A stretch of DNA of 63,521 bases, filler included, from Reclinomonas americana ATCC 50394 (GCA_048213135.1; 6 parts of 4 records of this genome joined end to end with filler, not necessarily neighbours in it), one strand, 5' to 3'. Counted from the whole stretch's first letter, positions 1,572 through 60,649 are shown. Numbers and translations: made by a program. The notes: generated from the sequence alone by a model not told the origin.

Positions 1572-3215
1572 TTAGAACCATGGTGCGTCGCCCGACGAGC
1601 CCGTGGTTGTCTCCGACGCTCGCAGCGTGCACGACTTGCGCATGCTGTGGTCGAGGCCGTCGATCGAGTCGCTCTCGTTCAGCTCCTGCAGCAGTGCCTC
1701 CAGCGAGTCGGGCATGATCTCGCGTGCAATCCGCGCACGCATGGCCGCACTCAGGCCGCCCTCACCGTCGTCCTCCTCGTCGTCATCGTCATCGTCGTCG
1801 TCGTGCACATCACCGGCCATGGGTGGGCTCGAGGTGGGCACATAGTCGCCCGAATCGTCCTCTTCGTCGTCACAATCGTCACCGTCCATGTCCGGCATGG
1901 CGCTGGCGCCGCCGCCAAACACCATCGGGAACACGTCGGCGTTGCCCTTGACCACCACGTCCGCCCACGAGCGCCGTGCAGCCGCCGAGGCAGTGCTGCC
2001 GGCGCTGGCCTTGGCTACGACCACCGCAGCGGTGGTGGCCGTAGTCGTAGTTGTTGTCGTCGTCGTCGTCGTGGTCTTGCTCACGCCAATCATGGACATG
2101 ACGGCCGTCGACGGCAAGTGACGCGCATACATTGGCGGCATCACCGGCATGGTGGTCACCGGCGGCAAGTCCACGTCGCCGCTCTCCAGCTCATCACCCG
2201 CCTCGTCCGCTTCGCACTCCTCCATCGACATGTCCAGTCGCTTCCGACGAGACGACGACGACGGATCCGAGGCCGTGGACGACGCCACCGAGAGCGCATC
2301 GCCATCCTGCTGGGTCGACACGGTCACCACAGGTCGCTCAGTGCTGCCGTCAAAGTTGTCCCACCTGCACACACACACGCACACCGCCCAGGCAAGCATG
2401 AGTTTTCGAAAATCAGTTCTGCACCGCAGCAATGGACAACTCGCGCAACTTGTGCATCTCGCGTCGCCACTTCTTGACCAGCCCGTCCCAGCAGCGCTTG
2501 CTGATGTTCAAGTACATATCCGGCGTCCACAGATCACCACGACGGCGGTTGCGCCTGCAGCATCAAAATGCCACATGAGCGACCGAAGAGAGAAGAAAGA
2601 AACCCTTACACATGCACTCACTTGGGCACGTATTGCCGGTAAATCTCATAAGCACGCGTGTTCTTTCCATAATCCACTTGCTTTTGCCGTTGATCAATGC
2701 GCCGTTGCCAGACGGGATCCTTCAGTTCATCAGCCGTCAAGCGCGGCGCTGCACACAAGAGTTAAGGTGACTCAGCAAAAACCCCCGCCAAAAAATATCG
2801 CGAGGCAAACCCCCCTCACTTTCACATCACAGATGTACCACCCACACACAGAGACACAAGCACAACACAGCACAGACGTGTAGTGCACATACTCCTCGTG
2901 TGTGCAAGTGTGTCAGAGAGACAACGCGCGGGAAACTCTGTTTGCTCTCCTCTTCCCCTCCCCCCTTCTCTCTCTCCTTCTCCTCGCCCACTCACCTCTC
3001 TTGCGCTTTGGCTTCTCCTCTGCGCCACCCAGAGGCGGTGCTTGTGTGGGCGGTGCGGCGACCAGCTCGGGCGGAGTGAACATGGTCGAGTCGTCATCGA
3101 GTGCGGCTCCAGTCTCCGTGGAGGAGGAGGCAGAGGAGGGATGCTCTGGAGTGCGTGCGTAGGGCTTGGTGCGGCGATTCTCGCCAATCAAGGTCGGGCG
3201 CTCGTCACGTGGCAT
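1572..3215 (-). CDS. SLBP: Histone mRNA stem-loop binding protein
   Basis: Spliced exons at about 2750-2623, 2554-2450 and 2364 onward read RIDQRQKQVDYGKNTRAYEIYRQYVPK-RNRRRGDLWTPDMYLNISKRCWDGLVKKWRREMHKWD. This matches the SLBP RNA-binding domain (RQKQIxYGKNT..Y; TP..SxRxWD..WR..H.WD). Acidic C-terminal tail, stop at 1572. Confidence 0.88.
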
Positions 3216-3471
3216 AGTTTGTGCGCAGATGAGAAGCACGGAGGAACGACAGGAAGAAGAGAGAGAGAGAGAGAGGGCGGGTGTGTGCGATGTGTGTGAA
3301 GGGGTGAGGAAGGGAGAGAGAGAGAGAGCGAGAGAGTGGGAGGATCTATCGGTGGAAGAACCCTTTCCCTCTCGCCTATAATCGAATGTGTTTGCGCGGG
3401 AGATTAGCGAGCTCGACGACGGGACGGAGGGACGAACGCGGGATTGTTGTATTTCGATTGATGAAGGCCTC

Positions 3472-6400
3472 TCAGTTGTGCCTCGTGCGCTTTTGAGGCG
3501 GTTGGTCTGAATGTCGGAAGCGAGGCGATGAGTGTCAACGGTGCACGAATGGAAACCCAGCAGAACGCAACTTGGAGGCGGAGCATCGGCATGGCGCCGT
3601 CGGGTCATTGGCGGTTGCGATGATTGGGACGGAGCGGCAGCTGATCGCGTCGCCGGCGGGGCCGAGGTTGGTGCTGGCGGCGGCGGCGGAGGTTGGCGCC
3701 TTGGGTGAGCTGGAGCTGCAGCCGGAGGCGGAGGTTGGCGCCTTGGGTGAGCTGGAGCTGCTGCCGGAGGCGGGAGCATAGCAGCAGCCGGAGCAGGAGG
3801 TGGCGGTGGAGGCGGAGCCGAAGCCGGAGCTGGACCAGGGGCGGCAATAGCCGGTGGAGGGGGAAGGCATTGCGGATCGATGCCGACCTCGGACAGCCGC
3901 TGAGCCCACTCTGCGTGCTTTGCGTGGCGGACGGTCTGCGGCAACAAGCACGAGACGCGTGAGTGAACCGCACGCGCGCACAATTGCGCCAGAGACACAT
4001 TGGCGTACCACAAGCTCATGGAGTCGCCCCGCGTTCTCCTGTTGCAGCTCAGCCAGTCGCAGCACTTCACTCAGCTTGTTCATCTGGACGGACACAAAAG
4101 AGGTGGTGATGCACAGGAAAACACTGGTCAATAGGAAACCATGCACACTCACGCGTGAGGCCTCCTCCAGCAAGCGCTTGCCGGACGCTGTGGCCAACAA
4201 CACACGCCGCATCTGCGATGGCTGCTGTGGACCGCGATCAACGTTCCGCACCAGCGCAAGCACGTCTTCGGCCATCAGCCTATTGACTTTGAGAGTGCCC
4301 TTGTCAACAATCGGCCTGGGCGGTGCAGCATATTCCAGCCCTCGACTATTCATGATGAACGGAGCATCACGGTGGCGCTGCAAGCAGCCAAAACTGCAGT
4401 CACACAGAGATATCTCGACCGGTGAGTCACACGCAAAAGAAGCCGAAACAAAAAACCATCTGCTGAGCACGCCAACGCACGTGGTACTGATGCCATAGGT
4501 CTTCTCGAACTCGTCCATTTGTTCCTTGGTGTCCCACAGCAAGAGACCGCTAATCAAGTTGAACATGACCTGTAGTGCTCGTCAGTCGCTGTCAAGGCCG
4601 AATGGCACACGAAAAAATCACTCACCTGCACCAGTCGCAGACTGCGCGGCGGTTCGAGAAGCTCATAGATGAGATGATTGACTGCGAACGAGCTACCGGC
4701 AATCTCGCGGTTGTCGATCATCGGGCGAATGGAACCAGAAGGATCAGGCATAAAGTCTGCACGGGCAGAGAATTTTAGTCCCGGATGGAGGTTGCCGCAT
4801 TCGACGCGTAAAGAAGTGCACGCAACTTTTCCTGTGTGGCACCCATTTGAACTTGATGCCAAAGTCGTCAGTGATGCACGCATTCGGAATCTGCGACTGG
4901 AGCATGTGCGCTATCGACTCAAACTTCAGGAACGACAGATTCTGTACACAGCGACATTCGCGTCAGTCAATCCACACACGCACACACACACGCACACAGA
5001 GAGCGATCAACAGGCACGGGGAGGCAACCTACCGGACTGTATCCCCTCGCCTTGATCGCTTCCACTTGCGACTTTTTCTCCACAATAATGGCGCGAATGA
5101 ACTGCCCAATGTGACTGGAAATGACCCAACCAACTCGTGAATCCAGCACCGTTGCCGACTGCAGTGCAGTGAGGAGGAGATGGATGCCGTGTGGAAATCA
5201 ATGCAAGTCACTCACCAGTCCCACAACATGCAGCACTCCTTCACACTCATGTCGCATCCGAGGCAAAATGTTCTCCAGCTCCTGTGTTGAGGAGCAGGAT
5301 GATGCCCCCGCCGTCGCCGTGGCTCTGCAGGCACAAATTACTTACCGCCAGCGGCCGCATAGGATCGTGATCCAGCACCGACACAGCTCTCCGAATGTCG
5401 AGCTCCGGCAGACGTCTCCGCTCAATCACCTCTCTGACATCGTTCCGTGGCTCCGGCAACGAGTGCTTCAACTCAACGAGCGCCCGGTCAACGCTCTCAC
5501 AATCACGTCGCAGGCGACTGAGATTGGCGTCCACTTCCCGCTGCTCCGTCAGTACGTACTCGCAGATTTGTCGCTGCCGATTCTTCTCCTGGGCCTCAAT
5601 CTCTGCGCAACAAGATTCAATAACACACCAAGACGACATTCCCTCCATCAATCCGCACGCAACGGCCAGGAATGAACACCGTCACTGATTTAGACTCCAG
5701 CGTCTGCTGACGCTGTGAACCATCCTCGAGCGACATCTTGAGCGCCAAGCAGGCGGTGGCACTGCGACTCTGCTGGTGATCGGAGTGCAAGTGGAGAGTG
5801 CCTGCTACGGCCGACGGCGATAACCATGCCGTATCTTCGCACACAATCTACGACGCACCATCAGATGGAAGTGCTCTTCGGTAAGCAACGTGTTGCCTTC
5901 CACTCACCGGTTCAGCAGAAAACTCGCTGATGCGGAAGCTTATCTCTGCCGACACTACGTGCTTGCACATCCTGAAACGAACAAGCACGCAGGAGTGAGA
6001 AAGCGTGTACAGTCGCCTCGCGTGAATAAACAATTGGGTGCGCCACGAAACGAGGGATGCGGGCATTGTGTGATATTGTCAAACTCGTCCATCAGCACAA
6101 CTGACACGCGACTCGCACTGTTGTGCTCCATGAGCACACACTCCACCAGCTCCAAGAAGCTGCAGTACACACATTTTAGTGCCCACACATTCGCACAAGC
6201 AAACGCACATCTCCAGGCATGCTCGTACACAACTGACTGCCACGTTCATCTGCAATCTTGACGTAGTGGGGCGGACCTGTGCGCATGCAGGGTGCACTGA
6301 ATCAGCAGGACCGCTGGTGTGGAGAAGAATTGCACACTCACGCACCGGGAATAAAGTCAGCGTGGGCGCGGCATGCAACATCCGGATGCATGGCGAGTGC

Positions 6401-9400
6401 AAAGTCGGCAAACACGCGCCGTCTCGATCCAGTCACCCGCGTGATGCAATTGTTGAAGGTGACCAGCAGCGCTGTGCACATATGTCGAGGCATTTGTCAG
6501 CAGCTGGGAGGGGAAACCCCAAAAAACACATGGAGGATTGATTACACAGACCGCCTTGCGATTCATCAACTGTCAGCGACCACGGCGGCATTGCGCCCAT
6601 CTGAGTGGTGAGCTCGGGCGAGTTCGAAGTGACAACCAGTGTCGCCTCCATCGCATGGTGATGCGGCTTTTGGTCCTCGTCCAGTACGACCAGCTGCGCA
6701 CACGTACATGTCGATAAGAACAAGCAGCCCGGCTGTGAGGCAGAAATGTAAGCGCAGCGAGCGCACCTTGCAAGTCGGGAACGTCGAACCGGCCTGGACG
6801 GCCTCTTCGCCAAAATCGACTACCTTCAAGAACGCGGGACCAGACGAGCGCGTCTTGTGAACGACAATCTGCCATCGTACGCGCCATGAGCCCGCAGCAG
6901 CGCACCATGAACAATCGAAACAATGATTGCACCTCACGAGAGCACTTGGTGCCTTGAATGATAAACGAGCAGTCGTTGGTGACTTTGTTCAGCGCCAGAG
7001 TCTTCTCGGCCACCGGATTTTGCGCTGCGGGCACAGTACGTCTAAGTCGCCAACAAAGACCAGAAAACAATACCCCCAATCGTGTGGCGTACCGTTGAGA
7101 CCAAACTTCTGGTCGACGAAGCGCGACTGCGGTTGTGACGGTGGCTGGTGCGACGATGATGCTTGTGACCCTCGAGTGACCCTCCCTTTTGTCTCCGAGG
7201 CATCTTCCTGCAGTCGAATGGTCACTTGGGCTACAAAGCGGGCCACGAGAGTGTCAGAAATCCATCCGCCAGTTACGAGGTGCTACACGTGCGTGGAAAG
7301 ACGTAACGATCAGTAGCAAAGTTGCCGGCCTCGTCCTTCATGGAGACGCGAATTTCGCGATGCCACGGCCTGCCTGATTCCGCAAAAATGTGGATCTGTT
7401 CGTTGGCAGCCGACGAAACAATCTCCTGGGAACATGAATACGACACAGAGACTCATCAGCATGCACACAAAAAACAAAATAAACGCACACGCTACCGCAG
7501 CTGGGTTACGCACCTCAGAATCGCCAACAAATGCAATTTCGATCACACGGGGTTCCCCTGTGGGATAAATAATAAGTTGCCGCGATCAACAGCACAAAAC
7601 AAGGAGACCCTGCGTCAATCTACAAACCTGGCACCAACGAAAAGCCGCGCGTTTGAACTTCAGCATCCTGCATCCACACAAAGTGCTCGTAAGGGCAAAC
7701 AAAACAAGAAGAGTCACTCATCCAACAAAGCACAAAAACACACCGAGCCGCGTACGTATGCGCTGCAATCGACGCGTCGAGTTTGCTGACCACTCAAGTA
7801 AAGCGGCCTTGCGCGGCAATTGAACTGGATAAATCCATCCTTTCCAGCAACCGGCTGACCCAGGATTTGCACGTTGGAGTCTGCGTCGAACTCCACTACG
7901 ACTGTGTCGGGCAGCAACTTGTTCGGGGCTATCGTGTTTCCAAACTCGTCGGTCACCTGCCACCAACTGGCATGTGAGTGCTGCTGGTGGTTGAGAAAGG
8001 CAATTGACGACTGGCCGCCAAATCACCTCCGCCTTGACAGCGAAATCGGTACCCAGTTGAACGATCTGCGGCACCATGCATCGCTTGACAGTCGTCGGCT
8101 CTCCCACCACCGTGAACACCGACACATGCTCGTCACGAGATCTGTCACCGCTGTCCATGGTGATAACCAGCGGAACTTTCTCTGCTCCAGCCTGCACGAC
8201 AAAACCCCACCGCCGTTCGCAGTTAGCGACACGCTCACAAGTCAACCCAGCAGCAACTGCATTGCACGAACCGTCTTTGGCAACGTGATGGTGATCTCAC
8301 AGATGCCTTTTACACTGTCGACACGTCGATGGCCCGGAGCGGAGACGGTGAACTGTGTCGACACGGTCGCACGTCAGCAGACGAGACGGCACACGCAAGC
8401 GGAAGCAAACTTCTTGTACTCCTCGCCTTTTCGTTCAGAGGAACTCCTTTCTCGCCAAGCAGTCGCACCGAACATCTGACCCCCGTATTCGCCAGACCCC
8501 ACAATACGAACTGCGACAAGTCCACACCACTCGCGCCAAGCGGCGGAAGCGGATCGATGGGTGTCACTCGCACAGTGGAAATGAGGCGCGCGAGTTGAGC
8601 AGTGGCGCGGACACTTGGATCATGGCTGAGCTCAAATACGAGAGTGGCATGTCCATAGTACGATGAGACCAGCTGCGTGCGAGCAAAAACCACTCCGATT
8701 AGTGCGTGTGTCGCATGGGAACGCCATCACGACTCGTCAAGTGCAACACCAACCGGAATATCATCCTCCGATATCGTGTATCGACCCCCTTCCACTTGCA
8801 GAGTGATGCGGCCTTTCACCATTGGTCGTCCGTGCACTACCACACTTGTGCTGCACATCACGGGACTCCCCGTCTCATCAAGAACCTGGCAGCAGTAGCA
8901 GCGACTTAGTATCCAGCACGCACGCACATACACACGCGCGCGCACATACACACACACACACACTCACACACACACACACATACACACACCTCGACTTCCA
9001 GCGGATCGTGAATACGAGTGCCGTCGTACACCGTGACGCTGTTTGTGGAGAGACGGATGGCGACAGGCAGTCCTGCGCGAGTCGGGTACATGTGATGAGT
9101 CTACTTGCCAACAACAGAGACCAAGGACAGGCGCATTACCTGGAACAAGAGCGGTCCCCACGCCAGCCTTTTTGTTTTCCGATCCAAACGCCACAATGAG
9201 ACGAGCCTCTCCGTACACCATCGGTGAGGCTACACACGTAGCACAAGTCAGCGAGACAATTCAGGCTCTCCGAAACCAGCCAACACAACGCAACGCTCTC
9301 CGTCGCCCTCGAATCGGCCGTGCGGCGTGACCTTGAGTCGCACGCTCGCCACTCCCTTGTCCTCGAATTCTTCCATTTCGCACGAGCTGTCAATGGTGCG

Positions 9401-10361
9401 TTTCTGCAACATGCGCCAACAGGTAAGAAGGGAGGCGTGCATGTGGTGGCGACACATCATCGCACCGATGCATTGCGGAAGCACACTCGTTTCAGGTCGG
9501 CCGAGCTGACGGGAGTGGCGTTGCCGAACTTGTCGCGCCCACTGATTAGGTAGACACGCGAGGATCCCACCGGCCACTCGGCTTCGTAGTTGCCGGCTGG
9601 AGAGCGCACGCTCAACTCGCAGAGATCGCCTGAGCAGAGCGAGTAAGCAGTGTGACACTCGCAGTAACAGTCGCACAGCGGCACATCATCGTACCTGGCT
9701 CCACTTGGACGATAAACGAAAACTCGCTGAGCTCTGCCGATACCGGAGCCGAGATGCAGAATGTGTAAGTTCCACTCTTCTCGAGTGGCACACTCGAACC
9801 CGAAAAGTCGGCAAACTTGTAGCTCTTGTTCTTCGAGTTCTTGGCCCTCTTCCAGTCCTGTGTGCACCAGTAAGAATGCGTTAAAACAGGAGACACCCGA
9901 CGCAGCGACGCAACAATTGCCCGTCCTCCACCGGCCGGTTGGAAACTGATCACGAGCTCGGCATTGAAGTGCGCCGCCTCGCATACCTGTCACGTGACGA
10001 GCGGGGTGGGTGCTTGCATCGAAAAGTAACGCAATAAAAAACAATACAAACCGTGCCATTCCTCGTCACAGAGACGATGCGCAGCCAGTCCCACGGCACC
10101 ACAAAGCCGGCTCTGCGGATCATGGGCGTCGTCAAATCGTGTTCCACCAATTCGTCCACATTCGCTTCGGCCAGCACCTGCATCGCGTGCGGTCAGCAGA
10201 GTGGCTGAGGGCCAGCATACGAAACGAGACGCAAGCACCTCGGGGGCCATCTTCAAGACGGTGTCATTGTCGGCAACAGACAGGGTGTGCGCCTCCCAGA
10301 ACTCTCGATTGCGCACGATGCTTGCCAGCCGCGACGGCCGTTTGTCAAGCTCCGCTTCCCT

Positions 10362-10420: not shown

Positions 10421-10540
10421 GCCGACAACGCACTNNNNNNNNNNNNNNNNNNNNNNNNNNNNNNNNNNNNNNNNNNNNNNNNNNNNNNNNNNNNNNNNNN
10501 NNNNNNNNNNNNNNNNNNNNNNNNNNNNNNNNNCGCTCCT

Positions 10541-10598: not shown

Positions 10599-11743
10599 TC
10601 CGCCAAGCATCGTGCACACACAAACGCGACGGACACGCAACATTTTCTTCTCGACTGCATTGACTTTGAACGGACCAAAGTTTGTCGCCTTGACGGCCAC
10701 TCCACCTCGCAGAGGCTCAAACACCACGGAGAGCTCTCGCGGCTGCGCTTGCGCCTGCAACACTTCGGCGGTGGCGGTAGACAACGTGCGCAAGCTACGA
10801 ATGTCCTCGCATTCGACCAGCATCACAACTGCGGAACGAGGTAAGACACAGTGTGACCATCATCAACATAGGCACAGCAACAATAATGAGCCGCAACGCT
10901 GCGAGTCCTCGTCGACATCCATCGCATCTTCGCGGCCTCGGTCGACAAAGCCGGCAATCATGAAAAACTTCTTGTCGGCCTCCAGCCAGATACAGTCCTT
11001 GAGCGCAAACCTCGTGCCGTAGATCATCGCCCCAGCGTACATCATGTCGAGGCCGTGCACTTTGCGATGAGCCAGGTCGAACTTGACCTGTCGTGCACCG
11101 CAACGCAACGTGCGTGAGCACAAACTCCAATACATGTGACATGGCGGCGGAGGAGCAGACGGAGCGCAACATCCTGATCGAGTCTGCGAGACACGCGACC
11201 GATCCAGTCGGCGATGCGTGCAGTGAGGTCCTTTGGAGCGATCTTCTCGCTCTCCACACGCCCACTGCGAATCGTCACGCCGCTGATTTTGGCGTGCTTG
11301 GTCAGGCGCACTTCACAGCCCTTGAACTTTGCATCGTGCAATGCCATGTTAAATGGATGCAGTGGCTCGAGAACATTCTTGTTCTGCTGCGGAGCAAAGT
11401 TCTCGTCCTGCACACCACGACACGTGAGTGAGAGCGAGAGAGAGAGAGAGAGAGAAAGCATCAACAATGCGCTCACCAAAAAGAGAGTTCCACGAATGCG
11501 GCTGTAGATGCGGTGCGAGAAGGCACGGACCGGAAACGCCCAGGGGAAGTTGCGCGAGCACTTTTCGCCGGGCAGCAGCCGGCCCATCCAGCGCACATCG
11601 AAGCCCGAGAGGTAGTCGCCAGTGATTGGGTCCATTGGCATGGTCTCCACGCCAGCGCGTGCGGGGAAGTAGCGCAAGACGACCTGCGTGCATATCGGTT
11701 AATATGCAAGGGCGCGTTTGACGCACATCCGCACCACATATCA
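3472..11743 (-). CDS. SMCHD1: SMCHD1/GMI1-like protein (transducer, BAH-like, Ig-like spacer, SMC hinge); 5' end lost at the scaffold break
   Basis: LRYFPARAGVETMP..FDVRWMGRLLP..FPW..YSRIRGTLFL|DENFAPQQNK resembles SMCHD1 IRYHP..[49 protein letters not shown] resembles EDEMARLPDRL. C-terminal coiled coil plus hinge: GVLHVVGL|SATVLDSRVGWVISSHIGQFIRAIIV..FAVNHL..VMFNLISGLLLWDT. Ends PPQKRTRHN* at 3472. Confidence 0.82.
10364..10596. repeat. (CA)n microsatellite tracts flanking an N gap, inside an intron of the SMCHD1-like gene
   Basis: Two long perfect CA runs either side of the gap. Confidence 0.9.
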
Positions 11744-36206: not shown

Positions 36207-37504
36207 ATGCCGCCGTTGCCACCGAGTGCCGCCTTCCGCCCTCCCCAACACACTTCGCACGTCCACACACCCCAGTCGGCGTTTGACGCAGGCAGCCATG
36301 GAGTTACAGCAGCTGCTGCCGCTGCCGCCGCTGCGGCGGAACTGCACACCGCATCTACTGCTACGCATGTCGGCACCATGGGACCACCGGTTCCTCACAT
36401 CGACCTTGTGCGAAAACCCCCTGGCGCAGCGACTACCGTTGGAGCGTCGGCCGGCCCGGCGGTAGCAACCGCTGCGGCACCGGCTGCGCACCCTACTCGC
36501 CGGTTGTTCCCCGACGATGGCGGCATGGGCAAGCTGTCCTCCACCGCCAGTTCCTACGCTCAGTACGACATGCCGACACCCGGACCGGACGAGGACGAAG
36601 CGCGCTCGTCGCAAGGTTTGCCTCCACGAGAAGCACACAGTCGCCGAATTTAAGTCTTTTTTGTGCGCTCACGTGCCATTCACAGCTGATGCGGAGAAGC
36701 GTCTTGCCGTTGCGCTGGCCGCAACGCACATGCCGCCGACACCGAGTCCGCTGGTCGACGTGCAGAGCCTGCAGAGTGCCAACATTCACACCAAGTTGCG
36801 CGATTCTTCTTCAGTATGATGCAATCGCCCTACGGCCAGCTCACATGTCCTCTCCCTTCACCAGGCTGTTTGATCAGCTGCGCGATTTGATCCACGTGTT
36901 GCAGCCGCAAGCCGACCGTCAGATGGCCTCGGGGCAGTCGCTGCTGGGCCCGTTCACCTCGAAGACGTCGTATCTCGGTCTGCTGTCGATCACAGAGGAG
37001 AATGTGTCGGATGAGTCGATTGAGGTTGCCGAAATGTTGCTCGAGTGCATGGACTATCGTCACAAGTGCCGATGGGACGCCGAAGCCAGTGATGTTGCGT
37101 CGCAATTCACTTTTGCGATGGCCAACGCACGTCCCTCACGTGTGCATGCAGAATCCGTCCTATGTGTACCTGCGCAAGACGATTTACGGCACAGGTGATG
37201 AGGCGTCGGGAGCGCCACCACGTGCCGACGAAGTGCTGCGAGAGGAGTGCGAGGAGGTGGACGGAGCTGTTCCACTGCCGCAGGTTAGCTACGATCCGTG
37301 GAACGGGCCGCAGCTGCCGGTGGCCACGCAGCGCTACAAGATGGTGGATGGCGTAATGCACGTGTTCGACAACGAACAGGGTCAGTGGGGACCACGTTGC
37401 TCTCCGCACGTCGTCAGTGTTCTCTAAAGCGACTCTCGCGTGCACAGACATGGTCGCCAACAAGCCGTGCATTGCGTTCCATCGCCGCGATGTGTTTTAC
37501 CGAA
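36207..37504 (+). CDS. AMPD: AMP deaminase, N-terminal part (truncated by linker; start uncertain)
   Basis: EVAEMLLECMDYRHK..YDPW..YKMVDGVMHVF..FHRRDVFYR fits the AMP deaminase N-terminal region (E..l..al.LR.KY; MxDGVxHV; FY.D). Catalytic domain not in the window. Confidence 0.68.
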
Positions 37505-49700: not shown

Positions 49701-51822
49701 ACCTTGTGGTCGAGCAGAATATCAAAACCGAGAATCTCGAAGCAGCATGAGCCGTCGTTGTTCAAGTCGGGCAGACAGGTGCGGTAGACTTGCGCCAGGC
49801 GCGGCTGAACCACCAGAATGGTTTTGATGATGATGTCCTGGAGAGGAGAGGGAGTTGGGTGAGTTGAAGGAGGGACGAGGTACTCGGGCATCCACTCAAC
49901 TGCAACATCGTTCCACAGCTTCTCCACATCGTGACCGCGCGAATCGAGGAATGCGTTGAGCCACGACAGTGTGCGCTTGGAACCGGTTTCCGGGTCGCGT
50001 TGATAGTTCTCGCTGTTCTTGTTGATGCTGTAGTTGGTCAGATGCATGAACAACTTGTCCATGTTCTTGCCCGTCGGCTCCCGGTACGGCTCGGTGGCCA
50101 GGCGCACGAGACCGTCCTTGTACAAGAAGATCTTCAGCGGATCCACGCTGAGCAGCAGCACGTACACGCGGAGGTCGAACTTGAAGCCATCGAGCAGCAT
50201 CGGCTTTTTCATGTACTCCTGTGAGCCGGCATACAGATGTCAGCAAAGCGTGGAGAGAGAGAGAGAGCAGCTGTTTCTCTCTACTAACCTGCACGATGAA
50301 ATTGTCGTACGCCGAAATGTCGCTCAGCGAGCGCGTCAAAAAGATACCACGGCCCTGTGCACCGGCACCCGGCTTGACGATGAACGTGCGCTTGCCTTTG
50401 CAGGCCTCCATGTGCCGCCGCAGGTCGGTAAAATCGGACGGCAGAGTCCACGTGCGCGGAAAGAAGTTGTAGTCGTCGGGAAAGAGGCGACGCACACGAT
50501 TGAGGTTCTTGGCCAGGTACGCTTTGCGTGCAATCTCCAGCATGCCGGGGAAGTGATTGATGTGCTGCAGGTGAAAGGGGGATAGAGTGAGCACTGGTGT
50601 GTGCACAGAATCTCTCTCCCTGAATAATAACCTGGTAATCCTGCAGTCGACTGAGTCGCTCCGGTGTCATGGGGCAGTCCATCCAAAACAGAAAGAAGTC
50701 CTCATCATCCTTGGTGATCTTCCACTTCATCAGCTCGACGCAGTCACGCACTACGACGATCGAGAGGGATGAGAACACGGAATGCGAAGATCTTTTGGTG
50801 CACGCACACGCACGCACCGACAGGGTACCGACACAGATCCAGATTGGCGGTGATTGGCGGTCGCTTCTTGTTGGCCGGTGAGCTGCCAGTGGAGGGCGTC
50901 GACGCCGACTTGCTGCCCTTGCCTGCGCCCTGCTCATCGCCACCCTCACCGCCACCACCCTCACCGTCCTCGTCGTCATCATCATCTTCATCGTCGTCGT
51001 CATCATCGGCACCAGCAGCCGCGGCCGCAGCCGCTNNNNNNNNNNNNNNNNNNNNNNNNNNNNNNNNNNNNNNNNATGAGGAGGATGAGGAGGAGGATGA
51101 TGAGGAGGAGGAGCGGGCGAGGAATGGTTTGTGTGTGTGTGTGTTGGAGCAGTGGTGGAGGGGGTGTGGATGATGCATGCGTGGAGGGTGTTCTGGGTGA
51201 CACACGGATTCTCACATTCTCAAGTCGGACACAACTCCACGCGCACAATCCCTTTCCTCTTTCGCCATGCCTCTCTTCTCACTGTGATCTCTCTCTTTGT
51301 GGCATGATCAGCTCGGCGACCGTCTTCATCCTCGGCCTCCAGTGCGAGTCTGCTGTCGCCCAGCGGTATTGGAGTCACCGGGCATCGCGCGGTGGTGGGC
51401 TCCTCGGCGGCTGGTCCCTCCAGCATGTCCGCGTCACCGTCGCGAGAGGTTGCGATGCGCGCGCGCGCGTCTCCTCCACACTCCTGCTTCCGTTGTGTTC
51501 GTGCTCACACTTCCTTTTGTCACGGTTAGGCGACGCACACGGCGGCAGTGTTGGCCAGTCACCGTCAGCGCCGCGCTCTGGCCGCCAAGAACGGAGGTGC
51601 TGTGGTGAAGCCTGCAGCGGCGGCGGCTGCNNNNNNNNNNNNNNNNNNNNCGTCTTCCTCCTCCTCCTCCTCGTCATCATCCTCCTCCTCATCTTCCTCG
51701 TCTTCTTCTCCCTCATCAGCTTCCTCGCCAACAAACACACTGGTCGGCGGTTTCGCCCCCGACCATGATGATAGTGACGAGGACGCAGACAGAGTCGCAG
51801 CAGTTGTCGCAGCAGACGACAT
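46794..51822 (-). CDS. Tubulin polyglutamylase, TTLL6/7/13 type
   Basis: YQ|HINHFPGMLEIARKAYLAKNL, YNFFPRTWTLP, TFIVKP..QGRGIFL, VQ|EYMKKP.L.DGFKFDLRVYVL, GLVRLATEPY, MHLTNYSINK, CFEILGFDILLD..P.LLEVNH.PSF, NFVRIYP; long low-complexity C-terminus. Confidence 0.92.
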
Positions 51823-52602: not shown

Positions 52603-55600
52603 ATGAGCGACACTCCTCCTCCCCCGCCTCCTCCTCCTCCTGCAGCTGCCTCTGCTGCCTCCCTGTCAGTGGTCCCCCCGCCTAACAGCACAGTGGTGGT
52701 CATTGTGCCAGGCTCGCGCTACCTCAAGATTGGAGTGGCCACGGAGACGCAGCCGACAGTGTTGCACAACTGTGCAGCATTCAGAGTGCCACCAGGTGAC
52801 TGACACGCACACACGCACGCGCAAGATAGCGACTGTTGCACTCATTTGCATTTCCAGGCACTCTGCCTCCACTGGAGCCCGATGACATGGGCATTCCCAT
52901 TCCTCCGCTCCTCTCCAAGCCCGTGGTGCTCCTCTCATCTCCACCTGCTCCACCTCAACCTCCACCATTGCCACTTGCCATGGACATTGATGTTCCTGTT
53001 CCTCCTCCTCCACCTCCTCCACCTCCACCAGCAGTCGCAGCTGGCTCCTCTGCGTCACTGCTGGCGGCCGCGCTCGAAGACGACGCCGACGAGTACTCTT
53101 ATGTGCGTTTCCCCTTTCCCCCTCCACTCCCGTTTGCATAGTCGCTCATGTGACGCAGACACTGCCGCGGCCTCGTGTGCCGAGTCCTCCGCCACCGCCG
53201 CCACCGCCACCGCCAGAGCCGGTGGAGAGCGACGAGGGCGCGGATGATGCGCTGCTGGAGGGCGGTGAGCCAGGAGAGGTGTTGGAGGCCATCAAGCACA
53301 TTCGCAGAACGATTGCCGAGGCGCGACATGCGGCCAATGCAGCGCACTTTTCGTCGGCGGCGTCCAAGGCGGCTGCGGGTGGCGCCGGAGCGAGTGGTGG
53401 CGGGAAAAAGGGCAAGGGCAGCAAGGGAAAGGAGGTGGGAGGCGGGGGGGCGGGGAGAGTGCATGTTGCATCGTGCCACTGCTCACATGCGTGCGCAGAA
53501 AGCTGCCGCCGAGAGCAGCGAGTCGACGGGTCTGCCTGCGGCCACGCTCAATCGCATCCGCGCCATTCAGCAGATTCGAGTGGATGAGCTGGCGCCGGAG
53601 ATTGATCTCGGTGGTGAGGGTGGCTTCGAGTGGACCGAGGTCTCTCCCGGCACCTCGCGTCTCTACTGTGAGCAGGCCATTCTCGTGAATCCGTACATGG
53701 ACTTTCGCATCGTGTATCCGTTGGCCGGCGGCGGGCATGTCAAGCTCGGCAGTACGGTCATGGATTTGCTCGACGATCCCGACGACAGTAGGTGGGTGCA
53801 TCTTTGAATTCTCTGGGACGGCGACGCGCTCCTCACGTGTCACTCTGCAGAACACCCCTCGGCATGATGTCGTCCATCAATCTGTTCGAGGACGTTCTCG
53901 AGTTTGCTCTCACCGACCAGCTGGAACTGACTCGAAGGATGGTGGCGGTGCGACATTCTCCCTTGTTTGCATCCCCACTCTCCTTCTCGCACTCAACCGT
54001 GGTTTTTTGATAAAGGATTCGTCGGTCATCTACGCCGTGCCCGACAACTACGACAGATGGGAGTTGACAGAGGTGGTGCAGATGCTGCTGGGGCGCATGG
54101 GATTCGCCCGTCTGTGTCTGGCGCAGGAAGGTGTGTGCGCCATGTTTGGCGCCGCCGTGCCCGTGGCCTGTGTGGTCGACGTTGGCGACCACAAGACGTC
54201 GGTGACCCTGGTGGAGGACGGTTTCATCAGTCCCGACACTCGGTATGGCTCCCCGCATGCGACTCCTGTTCGCACACGTCTCACATTGTGATGTGTGCAC
54301 GCAGCGCCACACTACCGTTTGGCTGCAGCGACATGCGGCGACTGTTCTTGTGGCTGCTGCAGAGCAGCGGATTCCCGCAGAGCGCGTGTCGCCCCATGCG
54401 AGCCAACTGCGATGACGACGAGTTCCGCCTGCTGTTCGAGCGAATTGCCACGTCGGTGATTGTTACGTACGCGGTCGCCTGCTTGCAAAATCACGCTCGT
54501 GGGTGTGCCTCTCACTGCCCTGCGTTTGTTTGCGAAAGCCTCTCGACGCCATGCCATGTCCGGTGCTGTACGCTCGTCGCCGACCGGCGTGCACGCGCCA
54601 GTACCGCTTGGTGCTGACGGACGAGCCACTGGTGGCTGGCCTGGTTTGTCAAAACTAGTTTTTCCGCTTGCTTTCTCTTGTTGTCCTCACCTCTTCCTCC
54701 CCGAAAAAATCGCGGCTGACAGACACTGTTCTCGCCGGCGGCCTTTGGACCTCTGCGACGCTCAGTCGGCAACTCGAGTGTCGGTCGCCGTCTCGGATTC
54801 GAGCAGCCATTCGACATTCTCACCGAGGAGTATCTGGCGGAACTCAATGCACTGGTCTGTTCCGTGTCTCTCGTCGCCAAGTTGTCGCCTGTCGTTCCGC
54901 TGACGACGCACTATGCACACCCGCTGTAGATTGTTCCAACCAAGCCTGCCTCCTCCGTCACCTCGGCCGCCAAGCCTACCGACGAGGGCGCGTCCTCCTC
55001 CTCCTCCTCCTCTACGACCGCCACGACCGCCACAGTGGCTGGCGCGGCGGCCGATTCGGCCGCCAAGCCGTCGCGTGTGTTTCCAGCGGGTGCATTTGCG
55101 ACGAGTGGAGCCACGACGGCGTATGTGGAGGAGCCGGTGATGCCACTCGACGAGGCCGTGTACCGGTGTCTGGCCTCCTCGCGTTGCGTCTTTGTCGGGG
55201 AAAGGGGGAAAGGGGGAAGTGGAGAGGATAAGGAGAAGACTGAGGTGGAGTGCATGTTGTGGGTGAAAATTGGCGACGGTGTCTTCTGCTTTGCCCCTCC
55301 TACCCCACCCCCATTCTCCTCTTCCTTCATATTCTCATTCTCATTCCTTGTCACAGAGGAGTACCAGAAGAAAGGCACTCTGCCACCGGTGGTGCTGGCC
55401 GGCGGTGGTGGCTCGATTGTCGGCCTCCGGGAAATGCTGCAGCAGAGGTGCGTGCTCTGCAGACATAGTCAAAAAAAAAAGACACTCACCACTCTCTCCA
55501 CAGAGTCGCAGTGCGCTTTGGCGGCAAAGTGCGCGTGGAGATCATTGATCCGAAGCAAACTCGCGGCATTCTGCCTCAGAACCTGAGCTGGCGAGGTGGG

Positions 55601-56424: not shown

Positions 56425-56524
56425 NNNNNNNNNNNNNNNNNNNNNNNNNNNNNNNNNNNNNNNNNNNNTTAATTAATTAANNNNNNNNNNNNNNNNNNNN
56501 NNNNNNNNNNNNNNNNNNNNNNNN
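56425..56524. other. Artificial scaffold linker
   Basis: N44-TTAATTAATTAA-N44. Confidence 0.97.
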
Positions 56525-56609: not shown

Positions 56610-57014
56610 ATGCAGAGAGTGGTGCCTGTGTGGGGCCTTCCCCCACCCACGTACTACTCTGCGGATTGTTGCGTGCAGTGGTGGCGACTTGCCTTGCATC
56701 TCTCTCACTCTCTCTCACTCTCACACACATACAGATCCGACTGACGCCTACTCTCACGACTATGACTCGTTTCGCGACACAGAGACACCTCTGATTGTCG
56801 ACAATGGTGCCCTCTCTCATTGCTCTCTTGCATGCACATTGCATGCATTTCTCACGTGCATTGTGTGTCGCAGGATCACATCGACTCAAGGTGGGATGGG
56901 CCAGTGAGGAGTCACCGCGATGTTGCGTGTCTCTCTGCGTGTCACGAGATAGAGACGGAAGGAGGGAGGAGAGGGCAAGAGAAAGAAAGAAAGAGAACAG
57001 AGAGCGAGCGAGCG

Positions 57015-57102
<88 letters not shown>

Positions 57103-58000: not shown

Positions 58001-58054
<54 letters not shown>

Positions 58055-60649
58055 AATGTAGAGATCCTGCCATCTTCCGTCTCATGTTATGGTTGTTGCT
58101 GGTGTGCAGACGTGTACCGCAGCATCATCTCGAAGCGCTTTCGCGATGTGGATTCGGTCGGCGTCGACATTCCCGAGGCGAGTTGTCTCTTGTCGTCTTA
58201 TGTGCTCTGCTTCGGCACTCATCTCGTTGGTGCAGTCGGACGTGTATCGTCTGTACACCAAGACCGCCTCCGATCGTGGCATTGTCAGCCACTTGGACGT
58301 GCAGGAGGCGCTGTGGGACTATGCGTTCTCGCGTCTCGGCATCGACACGGAGGGAGTCTTCCATCCGGTGGTGATGACGGAGACTGTGTGCAATCTCAAC
58401 TACTCACGCGGCTGTTGCGTTCTCCACGCTTCCTTTGCCCTCCTCCTCGCCATGCATTGACGTTTTCCTCGATAAGCAGTGCTGGCCGAGTCGCTCTTTG
58501 AGCACTACAGTGTGCCGTCGGTGTGCTGGGGCGTCGACGCACTGTTTGGCCTCAACTATGCACGCTACTCGAATGGTGAATGCGCGTCTCTCTTTCTCTC
58601 TCTGCGTGCCTCACATCACACTCACACACCTCACGCGCACAGAGGGCTTCTGTCCTCACGGGCGCGCGCTGATCATCTCCAGCGGCTACGCCGGCACGCA
58701 TGTGATTCCGTACATTGACCACAAGATGGAGGCGAACAACGCACTGCGCATCAATCTCGGCGGCATGGATGCCACCGATCACCTCATGAAGCTGCTGCAA
58801 GTCAAGTACCCGCAGCACCGCACGTCGGTGCTGCCCATTGCTGTGGAGCGCATGAAGGAGACGTTTACGTATACGGTCGATTTCGATTACATGGAGGAGC
58901 TGCGAGGGTACCAGGAGCTGCTCGTCGACGAGGGCAATCTGCGAGCGGAGCGCGGTCATGTGCGCGATGTGAAGGAGGAGGGACCGGTGGAGCCGTCGTT
59001 TGGTCCCGTCCGCGTACAGCTGCCCTTCATTCCGGTGAGTTTGTCGTTTTCCCGTCCCATCAACAACTCTTCCCTCTCACCCCTTCTGTATCCCCTGCAC
59101 GGCAGTCGGTCACCACAATGAGCGAAGAGGACGTTGAGCGACGCGAGCGGCGGCGTCAGGAAGCCGCACAGCGTCTGCGCGACATGGCGATGAGGAAGCG
59201 AGAGGAAAAGGTACACCTACACGAAAGCCATCAATTCTCTACTGTCGCTCAGCTCATCGTCTCTTCGTCAGATTCGCCAACTCGACGCCCAGTTGGAGGA
59301 TCTACGCAAGGTGCAGTCGTTCAAAACGCAGTGCCTTCCGAAAGAGTACAAGGAGGAGCTGGCGCGCCGCGAATGCAAGAACGACGACGAGTTGAACAAG
59401 CGCATTGTCGAGGTGGAGAAGAAGCTGGCCAAGGCTCGCGGTGACAAGGAGGCGGAGGCGGGCGACGGCAGCGGCGATCCGCAGGCGTCATTGTCGCCGG
59501 CCGAGTTGTACCCGTTGCTCGATGTGCCGGATTCGCAGCTGGACGAGGCGCAGCGCAAGGAGAAGAAGCGACAGCGGTTCATGAAGAACATTGCCGAGGC
59601 CCGCGAACGACGACGAGCCGAGCTGCAGGAGAAGCGCGAGCGGGAGGACGAGGAGAAGAGACGCGAGCAGGAGCTTCGATTGAGGAGTCCGGCCGAGTGG
59701 CTCAAGTCGAAGAAGCGCCTGCGCGACGAGTACCTCGACCGGGTGGAGCGCAAGAAGCGTCGCAAGAAGGAGATGAACGACCGACGTGGTGTGGTGGCGC
59801 AGATGCGACTCAAGGCGCTGGCAGAGGCCGGTGGCATGAGCGAGGCGGCGCCGACGGAGCAGCGTTTCGGCGAGCGCGATGACGACTGGAACGTGTACAA
59901 GTTCATGGCCAAGGAGGCCGACGACAGCTCCTCCGACGAGGAGACTATCAGCGCGCGTGTGGAGGCATTGGATGTGGAGATTGCGGAGATGGAGCCAGAC
60001 TGGTACGCCATTGTGCACCGCATGCGCAACAGCCGGAGAGAGAGTTGCGTTGCGCACACACACACGCCTCTTCCTCGTTTCTCTTCTGTCCTGCCGTTCC
60101 AACTCTGCATTTTTTTCTCTTTGTGTCTACTGCGCAGCGCTGTATGGCCTCGGACAGACGCAAACCGCCTTTTGCGAGGCGGAGAACCACCAGCTGCAGC
60201 TGGCTGTGGAGCGCATTCGCGTGCCCGAGTTGGTCTTCCAGCCGCAGCTGGCCGGCTGTGAGCAGGCCGGTCTGGTGGAATGCATTCAGACGGTACTGGC
60301 ACGCTATCCGCAGGCTGTGCAGCGTGAGCTGCTGCAGAATGTGTACGTGGTCGGCGGCAACACCCTCTTCCCCAACTTCACCGGCCGCGTCACCAATGAG
60401 ATTCGCGCGTTCTCGGCCTACGGGCAGCCGATTCGCGTAATTGGCGGCAGTGCCGGTGGCTCAATCCTCGATCCGTGGCGGGGGGCCGCCATCTTTGCAC
60501 GAGACCGTCAACAGCTGCGATCGGCGTCGCTGACGCGCGCCGAGTTCCACGAACGCGGTCAGTGGCACATTGCGGAGCAGCGCGGCTTCTTCCGGGAACA
60601 CGCCTTTTCAAATCCGTTCTTCCCCTCACCACTGCCACCGGCTACGTAA
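56610..60649 (+). CDS. ARP5: Actin-related protein 5 (INO80 complex), 10 exons
   Basis: PLIVDNG|SHRLKVGW, QEALWDYAFSRLGI..HPVVMTE..NYSR..LAESLFEHYSVPSV.WGVDALF, RINLGG..LLQVKYP, VQLPF, coiled-coil insert, FGERDDDWNVYK, QLAVERIRVPELVFQP, DPWRGAA, EHAFSN. Introns: 56668-56734, 56807-56873, 56922-58109, 58178-58235, 58414-58479, 58576-58642, 59035-59105, 59211-59271, 60044-60137. Confidence 0.93.
57018..57100. repeat. (GA)n microsatellite in ARP5 intron 3
   Basis: Perfect GA run; resumes at about 58005-58053 after the gap. Confidence 0.9.

Follow-up and report, generated by a model that had tools for sequence, protein, structure and literature searches.

In the 63,521-nucleotide stretch of Reclinomonas americana ATCC 50394 DNA that we analysed (the window), H/GTTGCG(Y), with H standing for A, C or T and the slash marking the exon end, is, to judge from the sequence, very probably a genuine 5′ splice-site class, and a major one, among ordinary short GT-AG introns. 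Intron donors of this form, here called class B, account for ~20–25% of the short introns in the window. An earlier note on this DNA had listed 31 such donors, none of them after G, and every one of the 31 coordinates and strands held: 30 read GTTGCG and one, at 49900 on the minus strand, GTTGAG, a fixedness that is partly due to how that note's author selected the sites. The last exon base (−1) is A in 13, T in 11, C in seven and G in none of them. Positions +4 to +7 read G-C-G-(T/C/G), with C over A at +5 by 30 to 1 and a pyrimidine at +7 in 28 of 31 (T 19, C 9, G 3, A 0).

The word itself is barely enriched window-wide, with 73 occurrences on both strands against 59.5 expected under a first-order Markov model (1.2-fold), so that its usage at donor positions is the standout feature. 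The earlier note had called for the frequency at donors to be compared with background. In a donor-blind gene finder, which was given no donor information beyond GT, GTTGCG came out as the top donor hexamer. It opens 15 of the 111 introns but makes up ~1% of GT hexamers (binomial p 6e-13), which bears out the claim of a major class; the reversed-sequence control gave one predicted intron. Among the 30 listed sites that were scored, 23 lie in the top decile of 7241 scored GT sites (percentiles below refer to this donor-blind score). A self-trained finder placed 21 GTTGCG donors after non-G, compared with a total of five donors one mismatch away from it (GTTGCA 2, GTTGCT 1, GTTGTG 1, GTTGGG 1); gene-finder intron sets include errors, the pinned donors 2449, 49900 and 16634 having been missed.

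Protein homology, or the continuity of a domain, shows eight class B junctions to be true exon ends (called pinned here), in genes for RecQ, an ATRX-like helicase (two), TTL, SLBP, a G-patch protein (two) and a Zn2Cys6 protein:

2365..2449, minus strand: intron, donor caa/GTTGCG, 85 nt, phase 2, SLBP gene; percentile 0.984
15941..16006, minus strand: intron, donor tca/GTTGCG, 66 nt, ATRX-like
17373..17450, minus strand: intron, donor gga/GTTGCG, 78 nt, ATRX-like; top junction (91.8 vs 90.2); percentile 0.96
20490..20553, minus strand: intron, donor aat/GTTGCG, 64 nt, RecQ/BLM-like; picked by the donor-blind finder
32751..32807, plus strand: intron, donor aga/GTTGCG, 57 nt, G-patch gene; pinned at GWKE/GEGLG
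32884..32946, plus strand: intron, donor gga/GTTGCG, 63 nt, G-patch gene; pinned
44459..44517, minus strand: intron, donor cga/GTTGCG, 59 nt, Zn2Cys6 gene; pinned
49838..49900, minus strand: variant intron, donor gca/GTTGAG, 63 nt, in frame, TTL gene

Domain profiles and junction scores uphold the motif-based pinning that had been proposed at 44517, 2449, 20553 and 32751. At 2449, the SLBP_RNA_bind profile (34–66) stops at the exon end and is followed by the junction codon K and WDNF, and at 20553 the junction FPN/VPIMAL is the clear top candidate (222 vs 207 for the next). The 25-aa exon between the two G-patch introns covers G-patch profile 17–41 of 45, then LGV; for the second of these introns the gene finder used a more distant acceptor, 33120. 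Splicing at 44517 (ACLNCR/NAHACCTDDRPCRRCIRLNLVC) brings back the six-Cys spacing CX2CX6CX5CX2CX6C, and the downstream exon matches Zn_clus profile 13–38 of 39. The junction at 16006 is the top one against 12 homologs (75.9 vs 71.5), its intron being an in-frame insert in the PDB ATRX alignment. Finally, the 49900 junction scores 142 against 109 for read-through, with the Pfam TTL profile running to 205 and resuming at 211; of the 150 homologs listed, many have their break between query residues 112 and 133.

The other sites vary in strength, and seven or eight of the 31 have weak support. The sites 3571, 21207, 31312, 40592, 56668 and 56922 have percentiles of 0.07–0.85, whereas 44517, at 0.875, lies under the top decile and yet is motif-pinned. 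The earlier note had marked 10641 and 40592 as less firm; 10641 has no score because a gap (run of N) adjoins it, and 40592 reaches percentile 0.27. The original list omits at least two sites that are likely members, 24059 and 25259.

3507..3571, minus strand: candidate, donor caa/GTTGCG, 65 nt; weak, percentile 0.58
9230..9294, minus strand: intron, donor agc/GTTGCG, 65 nt; percentile 0.918; CTGAC branch, TAG acceptor
9858..9914, minus strand: intron, donor att/GTTGCG, 57 nt; percentile 0.916; present in the gene-finder model
10636..10641, minus strand: donor candidate aat/GTTGCG, hexamer only; gap at 10435–10533
10829..10897, minus strand: intron, donor agc/GTTGCG, 69 nt; percentile 0.99; donor-blind pick
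11088..11170, minus strand: intron, donor gat/GTTGCG, 83 nt, SMCHD1-like gene; percentile 0.978; donor-blind pick
15438..15507, minus strand: intron, donor caa/GTTGCG, 70 nt, ATRX-like C-terminal part; percentile 0.997; no homology able to pin the junction found downstream of the intron
16407..16480, minus strand: intron, donor gac/GTTGCG, 74 nt, ATRX-like; percentile 0.936; donor-blind pick; homology ambiguous at the junction
21141..21207, minus strand: candidate, donor cat/GTTGCG, 67 nt, RecQ N-terminal region, around which no homology was found; percentile 0.853
22028..22084, minus strand: intron, donor gat/GTTGCG, 57 nt; percentile 0.983; donor-blind pick
23993..24059, minus strand: additional candidate, donor gtt/GTTGCG, 67 nt, TPR gene; from the self-trained model; percentile 0.846
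24395..24452, minus strand: intron, donor aac/GTTGCG, 58 nt, TPR gene; percentile 0.991; donor-blind pick
25193..25259, minus strand: additional candidate, donor gat/GTTGCG, 67 nt, TPR gene; donor-blind pick; percentile 0.69
28316..28372, minus strand: intron, donor caa/GTTGCG, 57 nt, TPR gene; percentile 0.977; donor-blind pick
31312..31373, plus strand: candidate, donor tac/GTTGCG; percentile 0.818; acceptor uncertain (top candidate GAG; purine-rich tract)
36795..36864, plus strand: intron, donor caa/GTTGCG, 70 nt; percentile 0.984; donor-blind pick
37094..37151, plus strand: intron, donor gat/GTTGCG, 58 nt; percentile 0.998; donor-blind pick
40587..40592, minus strand: donor candidate acc/GTTGCG, hexamer only; a (CA)n repeat and gap 40439–40458 lie 3′ of it
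48280..48345, minus strand: intron, donor gca/GTTGCG, 66 nt; percentile 0.901; present in the gene model
48472..48543, minus strand: intron, donor cat/GTTGCG, 72 nt; percentile 0.993; donor-blind pick
55183..55356, plus strand: uncertain candidate, donor cgc/GTTGCG, 174 nt, actin-like gene; percentile 0.973; the gene finder preferred donor 55279, and no homolog able to decide between the two was found
56668..56734, plus strand: candidate, donor att/GTTGCG, 67 nt, ARP5 5′ part; percentile 0.66; weak HSP only nearby
56922..56927, plus strand: donor candidate gat/GTTGCG, hexamer only; percentile 0.07; a (GA)n repeat and gap 57224–57985 lie 3′ of it
58414..58479, plus strand: intron, donor gct/GTTGCG, 66 nt, ARP5; percentile 0.98; near tie with a GC..AAG alternative (159 vs 163 against one homolog)
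60044..60137, plus strand: intron, donor aga/GTTGCG, 94 nt, ARP5; percentile 0.969; acceptor agrees with where the ARP5 C-terminal alignment starts

Class B introns are short and of U2 type (57–94 nt, CTSAY branch, YAG acceptor), 29 of 30 measuring 55–95 nt. Their branch site and acceptor are common to the other introns of the window, and introns following an exon-end G equal them in length and branch features. U12-type identity was rejected, with neither the donor [GA]TATCCTT (0/30) nor the branch CCTT[GA]AC (0/30) being present.

Class B and exon-end G are mutually exclusive, and the −1 rule is real. G stands at −1 of 0/15 GTTGCG donors against 55/96 others in the donor-blind set (Fisher p 2e-5), of 0/21 against 58/99 in the self-trained set (p 1.6e-7) and of 0/8 against 8/9 among pinned junctions (p 4e-4), so that the −1 dependence claimed earlier holds within the window. 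The six G-preceded GTTGCG sites in the window are all on the plus strand and none is in the top decile; five fall in minus-strand gene territory according to gene models and homology, and the sixth lies outside the minus-strand TTL model, past its 5′ end. Donors following G are degenerate and G/GTNNGT-like, matching their earlier description as ordinary or degenerate: the pinned ones read GTACGT, GTGAGT, GTTTGT, GTTAGT, GTTATT, GTGTGC and GTGGCA. Position +6 of after-G donors is T in 31, C in 14, G in eight and A in five (n=58), and +3 is T in 13/58. The rule is one-directional, as had been noted, because caa/GTGAGT at 2621, pinned by the SLBP profile, makes a canonical strong donor usable at a non-G exon end as well; here profile 3–30 stops at the exon end and the following exon opens at profile 34 (34–66). 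The comparison donors are:

2555..2621, minus strand: canonical strong donor after non-G, caa/GTGAGT, 67 nt, SLBP gene
15618..15680, minus strand: after-G donor cgg/GTACGT, 63 nt, ATRX-like; top junction (193 vs 186)
16574..16634, minus strand: after-G donor gcg/GTGAGT, 61 nt; top junction (80.9 vs 70.5)
16802..16874, minus strand: after-G donor atg/GTGTGC, 73 nt; top junction (128 vs 108)
16974..17045, minus strand: after-G donor gag/GTGGCA, 72 nt; top junction (153 vs 143, read-through 117); an unused sense-strand GTTGCG lies at 17031 inside this homology-supported intron
19823..19896, minus strand: after-G donor cgg/GTACGT, 74 nt, RecQ; 134.8 against 135.5 for a GC donor at 19911, a near tie
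20272..20345, minus strand: after-G donor aag/GTTTGT, 74 nt, RecQ; top junction (157.8)
50219..50288, minus strand: after-G donor cag/GTTAGT, 70 nt, TTL; top junction (184.4), Pfam TTL profile 103 then 104
50565..50631, minus strand: after-G donor cag/GTTATT, 67 nt, TTL; top junction (125 vs 115)

Pairing was calculated with the canonical U1 5′ end AUACUUACCUG as the best duplex in any register, using nearest-neighbour energies that ignore U1-C and other proteins and take pseudouridine as U. On this scale the 31 class B donors average −1.0 kcal/mol, random GT sites −2.5 (sd 2.2) and pinned after-G donors −7.5 (after-G sets range from −6.4 to −7.5). Canonical pairing separates class B from non-G decoys with an AUC of 0.35, a U1 altered to ACGCACCUG in a shifted register with 0.79, and a hypothetical guide AUACGCAACCUG with 0.98; for after-G donors this guide is on par with the canonical one (0.67 vs 0.68).

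We tentatively propose that, whatever the register, GTTGCG may go unread by the canonical U1 5′ end and be paired instead by a co-evolved guide. The guide 5′ end would carry ACGCAAC, the complement of GUUGCGU, and its likeliest form would be a second U1-type snRNA beside a canonical U1, which would serve G/GTNNGT donors and the occasional H/GTGAGT. The near-fixed word after non-G and the +7 pyrimidine count in favour of such an exact guide, as do the after-G energies and the pinned caa/GTGAGT in favour of a canonical U1 being present too. A single altered U1 could explain the +3 T of after-G donors without a second snRNA. As to the avoidance of −1 G, one may speculate that an eighth G-C pair might make the duplex so stable that its transfer to U6 is impeded. 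Among known eukaryotes the U1 5′ end (canonical form ACUUACCUG) hardly varies, which makes a variant U1 less likely from the outset. The window contained no gene for U1, U6 or another snRNA.

The earlier note had interpreted class B as a shifted or bulged register used routinely on ordinary U1, with variant U1/U6 snRNAs as an alternative. Its donor class, −1 rule and letter-level likeness to G/GTGCGT moved by one base stand, whereas the register shift on canonical U1 is not borne out, and the variant snRNAs appear to suit the data better. With a shifted register, U1 would bind H/GUUGCGU displaced by one base: the first G of the intron would replace the exonic −1 G and UGCGU would replace +2 to +6 of G/GUGCGU, while U6 and U5 cut at the GU one base upstream, a mechanism known from rare human sites. 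GCG(T) at +4 to +7 indeed equals the commonest after-G +3 to +6, the +7 profile resembles the after-G +6 profile, and the absent −1 G gets a natural role, its pair being formed by the G of the intron; yet a shifted helix would tolerate a −1 G, leaving its complete lack unexplained, and the letter match is expected under guide and shifted-register readings alike. The −2 A is equally common in class B (16/31) and after-G donors (28/58), so the exon side is unshifted. The single GTTGAG donor pairs well in a shifted register (−6.8 kcal/mol), and A or G-A at +4/+5 (GTTGAG, GTTAAG) is what a shift predicts; the fixed C at +5 is left unaccounted for by canonical U1 pairing, which for class B as a whole falls below random GT. 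The altered U1 that would rescue the shift is itself a variant U1. We therefore regard this reading as rather unlikely. Recognition independent of U1, by a sequence-specific protein on (U)UGCG or by direct U6/U5 engagement that offsets the missing −1 G, is in our view less probable again: class B lacks usable complementarity to canonical U1, an exact-word requirement is also typical of protein–RNA recognition, and the shared branch site and acceptor mean that only the 5′ end is special, but nothing in the window bears on a candidate factor, the +7 bias and the likeness to the after-G consensus favour nucleic-acid pairing, and we know of no precedent for a protein-defined major donor class.

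Two further readings need no special mode of donor recognition. Common descent from mobile ‘introner’ copies ending in GTTGCG and inserted after non-G bases would suit the uniform 5′ ends and narrow lengths, and transposon-made intron families are reported from other organisms (PMC11282704). It is nevertheless very improbable: all-against-all BLASTN of the 30 introns minus their first 8 bases turned up nothing beyond (CA)n/(CT)n low-complexity matches, none of the 30 has CGCAAC or another partner for a terminal inverted repeat, after-G introns share length and branch features, and descent would not preserve six bases amid full divergence unless they were functionally read. An artefact of chance hexamers near true donors or of hand-annotation errors has the weak sites, unused copies such as 17031 and the slight overall excess of the word on its side, and is extremely improbable in view of the eight pinned junctions, the donor-blind enrichment and the top-decile scores.

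Shifted-register 5′ splice sites of mammals were reportedly described by Roca and Krainer in 2009. Like class B, mammalian shifted or bulged sites include N/GUU..GU donors that allow a U1 helix to be drawn with a one-base shift, and the seventh intron base is informative. Class B differs in its fixed word, with a +5 C unpairable by canonical U1, and in a predicted canonical pairing poorer than that of random GT. Maximal-dependence models link the exon-end G to intron positions such as +5G. Here too a non-G −1 needs a strong intron side and a G at −1 tolerates degeneracy, in one direction; the compensating word, however, is mostly GTTGCG without +5G instead of the U1 consensus GTGAGT/GTAAGT, and G exclusion before it is absolute in the present sample (0/31). 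The exon-end G/+5G dependence is treated by Artemyeva-Isman and Porter (2021; PMC8283771). In human cells, experiments have established shifted and bulged registers, and Tan et al (2016; PMC4856993) put non-canonical U1 registers together at ~2.1% of human sites, in contrast to ~20–25% of introns here.

U12-type introns likewise set a second, sharply conserved donor word beside degenerate major donors, and Physarum polycephalum, for which Larue, Elias and Roy (bioRxiv 10.1101/2020.10.12.336362) report 20,899 of them and a U12 snRNA that has co-evolved, offers a precedent for a large second class and for snRNA/splice-motif co-evolution; class B has neither their donor nor their branch, and its branch and acceptor are those of the window's other introns. 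Ostreococcus, with the donor GTGCG(T/C) and the strict signals described for intron-poor genomes (Irimia and Roy, 2008; PMC2483917), shares a near-invariant GC-rich donor word with GCG and a strict CTSAY-type branch. Such genomes are described as having few introns of a single strict class, whereas the window, gaps excluded, averages about two predicted introns per kb and places its strict word beside a degenerate class, the two being split by the −1 base. A donor word used only after non-G exon ends hints at an unusual mode of intron-start recognition.

All 31 donors of the GTTGCG class (H|GTTGCG, where H is any base but G) that an earlier note had listed carry the reported word on the reported strand, GTTGCG at 30 sites and GTTGAG at one (49900, minus strand). 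As claimed there, each follows A, C or T, the last exon base (−1) being A at 13, T at 11, C at seven and G at none of the sites. The window comprises 63,521 bases with a G+C content of ~57% and 2,863 N in gaps. Both strands together contain 73 copies of GTTGCG among 7,783 GT hexamers, compared with 59.5 copies expected under a first-order Markov model; GTTGCG is hardly enriched as a word, and it is its location that is unusual. The list is incomplete, as at least two members (24059 and 25259) were missed. Not all sense-strand copies of the word are used: the GTTGCG at 17031 sits within the intron 16974–17045 (minus strand), 14 nt inside its homology-supported donor gag|GTGGCA at 17045 and out of frame with its acceptor, and is perhaps a decoy that goes unused, perhaps an alternative donor that breaks the frame. 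Several listed sites are weak, adjoin a gap or need an unusual intron:

3571, 21207, 31312, 40592, 56668 and 56922: weak sites
10641: unscored site adjoining a gap
55183: requires a 174-nt intron and was passed over by the gene finder

Two of these, 10641 and 40592, had been flagged beforehand as less firm. Querying the PDB with the exon of the actin-like gene at 54930–55277, which spans 55183, returned no match. Long (GT)n (10540–10600), (CA)n (40460–40560) and (GA)n (56990–57223) microsatellites lie in or beside introns and abut assembly gaps, which they are likely to have caused; they also prevent three of the listed introns from being resolved. In addition, the window contains five identical 100-base linkers (11744–11843, 18293–18392, 37505–37604, 56425–56524 and 60885–60984), each consisting of TTAATTAATTAA, which has a stop in every one of the six frames, between two runs of 44 N. 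The linkers are artificial contig joins, so that the order and spacing of the joined pieces are not guaranteed.

The strongest placement of the donors comes from junctions that are pinned, that is, whose exon end is fixed by protein homology or domain continuity. The genes of the window include SLBP, ATRX-like, BLM-like, TTL-family, ARP5, TTC21-like TPR, SMCHD1-like and Zn2Cys6 genes, with best protein identities of 45–61% to animals, Naegleria, red algae and plants. Junctions were compared with retrieved proteins in the case of three genes and also with the Pfam profile positions that individual exons match, the Pfam queries being ORFs and in-frame exons. Conserved motifs had been proposed to fix several GTTGCG donors, and the comparisons agree. 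In the RecQ/BLM-like gene, splicing aat|GTTGCG from 20553 to 20490 is clearly the best solution against 12 homologs (222 versus 207) and yields FPN|VPIMAL. The SLBP exon before 2449 stops at profile position 66 of 70 and continues as K|WDNF, and the 25-residue G-patch exon between 32751 and 32884, flanked by GWKE before and LGV after, corresponds to profile positions 17–41 of 45. Splicing from 44517 to 44459 yields ACLNCR|NAHACCTDDRPCRRCIRLNLVC, the classic six-cysteine spacing of Zn2Cys6 proteins, and the exon downstream of 44517 matches Zn_clus positions 13–38. The best junctions in the ATRX-like SNF2 gene are 17450 and 16006; at 16006 a solved ATRX chain aligns across the intron, which reads as an in-frame insert. 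In the TTL gene, gca|GTTGAG at 49900 scores 142 versus 109 for read-through, with the Pfam TTL profile stopping at position 205 in the upstream exon and resuming at 211 in the downstream one. At all eight pinned junctions of the class, removal of the intron restores frame and conserved protein sequence; the remaining 23 of the 31 listed sites were judged by coding statistics only. Among these, 58414 in ARP5 nearly ties with a GC..AAG alternative when judged against a single homolog: the ARP5 homolog search returned one protein, which did not separate 58414 and did not pin 56668, 56922 or 60044, and of the 17 loci that a scan of metagenome contigs gave for the ARP5 exon, none exceeded 37% identity. 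The long TPR gene (23165–29182, minus strand) has ~25 predicted introns and weakly matches the C-terminal domain of TTC21 (IFT139); its presence alongside the TTL-family gene suggests a flagellated organism.

To find donors independently of their sequence, we used an exon-chaining gene finder with a self-trained codon model, a 55–90 nt intron-length prior and a branch plus YAG term, accepting any GT as donor. This donor-blind finder predicted 111 introns, among which GTTGCG was the commonest donor hexamer (15 introns, the next hexamer having four), confirming that the word is above background at donors (binomial p ~6e-13). On the reversed sequence it predicted a single intron. When the finder was allowed to learn donor hexamers (self-trained finder), GTTGCG began 21 of 120 introns, and 19 of the 31 listed sites and eight of the 11 junctions pinned when scored were recovered; its catalogue is imperfect because pinned donors such as 2449, 49900 and 16634 were missed. 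Of the 30 listed sites that could be scored, 23 came within the top decile of 7,241 GT sites on a separate site score that likewise ignores the donor word, but this score is inflated by in-frame pseudo-introns within long exons and was therefore kept for ranking the listed sites and not for a catalogue of other donors. Two further versions were discarded, namely a codon-only gene finder, which was too noisy (3 of 31 listed donors recovered), and the same codon-only finder with GC donors allowed (6 of 31).

Nine further junctions could be pinned in the same genes, one after A and eight after G. The one after A, caa|GTGAGT at 2621, is a canonical strong donor and bears out the view that the rule is one-directional, as a non-G exon can use GTGAGT. 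The donors pinned after an exonic G (after-G donors, roughly G|GTNNGT) are:

15680: GTACGT
19896: GTACGT, 134.8 versus 135.5 for a GC donor at 19911
16634: GTGAGT
16874: GTGTGC
17045: GTGGCA
20345: GTTTGT
50288: GTTAGT
50631: GTTATT

A G at −1 is thus found at none of the eight pinned GTTGCG-class junctions versus eight of the nine others (Fisher p 4e-4), at 0 of 15 GTTGCG donors versus 55 of 96 others in the donor-blind set (p 2e-5), and at 0 of 21 versus 58 of 99 in the self-trained set (p 1.6e-7). In this window the intron hexamer is thus statistically tied to the −1 base, in the pinned junctions and in both finder sets. GTTGCG preceded by G occurs just six times in the window, always on the plus strand and never in the top decile of the site score; minus-strand genes run opposite five of these copies, and the sixth is situated past the 5′ end of the TTL model. 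After non-G bases, the finder's donors read GTTGCG 21 times versus five times for all single-mismatch variants together, so that the way in which the list was compiled does not fully account for the exactness of the word.

Apart from their first bases the introns are unremarkable. All 31 start with GT, and the best acceptors are YAG in 28 of 30 introns (CAG 24, TAG 4). The listed sites are followed first by CTCAY or CTGAC and then by CAG or TAG, as in short introns. The 30 introns with an acceptor measure 57–94 nt except for the doubtful 174-nt one (55–95 nt in 29 of 30), and all three phases are represented. Their last 45 nt contain a branch-like CT[CG]A[CT] in 23 and YTNAY in 26 of 30 introns, compared with 34% of control GT sites, acceptors having been picked with a branch term in both sets. 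The pinned after-G introns are alike (61–74 nt, with the same branch type 14–25 nt from the 3′ end). An identity as minor introns is ruled out, as the U12-type donor [GA]TATCCTT and the U12-type branch CCTT[GA]AC are each found in none of the 30 introns. Nor are the introns a repeat family, and an origin from introners or transposons is very unlikely, as they share nothing beyond their signals: an all-against-all comparison of the 30 introns returned low-complexity (CA)n/(CT)n matches only, and the complement CGCAAC is found in none of them. From lengths, acceptors, branch motifs and the absence of U12 motifs and shared sequence it follows that the GTTGCG introns are ordinary U2-type introns with special first seven bases.

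How such a donor is recognised is a matter of U1 pairing. The earlier note had read GTTGCG(T) as G|GTGCGT moved by one base, which is correct at the level of letters, and had proposed that the organism may routinely use a shifted or bulged U1/U6 register or, alternatively, carry variant U1/U6 snRNAs. In favour of such a shifted register, the class reads GCG at +4 to +6, and its +7 base is T in 19, C in nine, G in three and A in none of the 31 donors. This mirrors the commonest bases at +3 to +6 of the 58 after-G donors in the finder's set (G in 29, C in 21, G in 39 and T in 31, respectively), and the +7 composition of the class resembles that of the after-G donors at +6 (T 31, C 14, G 8, A 5; n = 58). 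The duplex energies point the other way. Allowing any register in ViennaRNA, the guide AUACUUACCUG, a canonical U1 that we assumed and that may not be the host's, pairs with the 31 donors at a mean of −1.0 kcal/mol, which is weaker than random GT sites (−2.5, sd 2.2), and with the seven after-G donors pinned when this was computed and the finder's after-G donors at −7.5 and −6.4 kcal/mol, respectively; it separates the class from non-G decoys with an AUC of 0.35. Two mismatches would interrupt the shifted helix, including the fixed C at +5, a position at which canonical U1 would favour A; the lone GTTGAG donor (49900) indeed reaches −6.8 with the same guide. Moreover, A at −2 is equally common in the class (16 of 31) and in after-G donors (28 of 58), so that the exon side is not shifted, and a shifted helix places no bar on G at −1. 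A routine shifted register on canonical U1 is therefore not favoured, and the alternative from the earlier note, a variant snRNA, would be the more likely of the two, with the proviso that all guide inferences rest on energies that ignore proteins and base modification.

A hypothetical guide AUACGCAACCUG, which is simply complementary to CAG|GUUGCGUAU, distinguishes class members from decoys at an AUC of 0.98, compared with 0.79 for ACGCACCUG, a hypothetical guide that requires the shift. On after-G donors AUACGCAACCUG performs like the canonical guide (AUC 0.67 versus 0.68), and a scan of 80 hypothetical U1 5′ ends singled out no guide for these donors, many reaching AUCs of 0.59–0.74. Because canonical U1 suits both the after-G donors and the pinned caa|GTGAGT, a pair of guides, canonical U1 accompanied by a variant, appears somewhat more likely than a single altered U1. 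T at +3 is common among after-G donors, which is unusual for eukaryotic donors; it is present in 13 of the 58 in the gene-finder set and in the pinned GTTTGT, GTTAGT and GTTATT, and may reflect the same altered guide. Carried to its full form, the variant-guide reading would give the major spliceosome two parallel 5′ splice-site codes, a scheme that we put forward tentatively and consider rather unlikely as it stands. Canonical U1 would read donors of the G|GTNNGT type; another U1-like snRNA, dedicated to the class and carrying ACGCAAC at its 5′ end, would read H|GUUGCGU at about a quarter of the introns; and G at −1 would be excluded to keep the two systems, or duplex strength, apart. Rfam searches (gathering threshold and E ≤ 5) found no snRNA gene in the window, returning one tRNA and chance-level matches:

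41556–41627, minus strand: tRNA gene (Rfam RF00005, 60.9 bits), the sole above-threshold RNA family in the window

A tandem array at 29900–30517 (plus strand) lies between two genes and consists of ~5 diverged units of 117–135 bp, three of which contain tctca|GTTGCGTGATG (30022, 30156 and 30293); no Sm-site-like element and no Rfam match were seen in the array.

Shifted and bulged U1 registers are established for a small fraction of human sites, with an estimate of ~2.1% for all non-canonical registers combined (PMC4856993). The mammalian shifted register is the closest mechanism to the GTTGCG class, which is set apart from it by its frequency, its fixed word and how poorly it fits canonical U1. 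Compensation for the −1 G between exon end and intron side is familiar; GTTGCG as the compensating word is not. As a precedent for a second intron class that is large and has an snRNA co-evolved with it, the expansion of minor introns in Physarum comes closest (bioRxiv 10.1101/2020.10.12.336362), but the U12 motifs that define that class there are absent from the GTTGCG introns. A full-text literature search within one library found no paper with a GTTGCG or GUUGCG donor consensus.

The observation of the earlier note is thus confirmed and extended: a fixed donor word lacks usable complementarity to canonical U1, begins a sizeable share of the introns and depends strictly on the −1 base. Few features of eukaryotic gene expression are as conserved as the U1 5′ end and the GTRAGT-like donor consensus. 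Donors of this kind would imply either an altered or duplicated guide or some other way of defining where introns start, and either outcome would bear on the evolution of the splice-site code. In practical terms, at least a fifth of the introns of this genome will be mis-annotated by gene finders whose training relies on ordinary donors. The two-code reading, if true, would represent a core snRNA guide that has co-evolved with a core 5′ splice-site motif.
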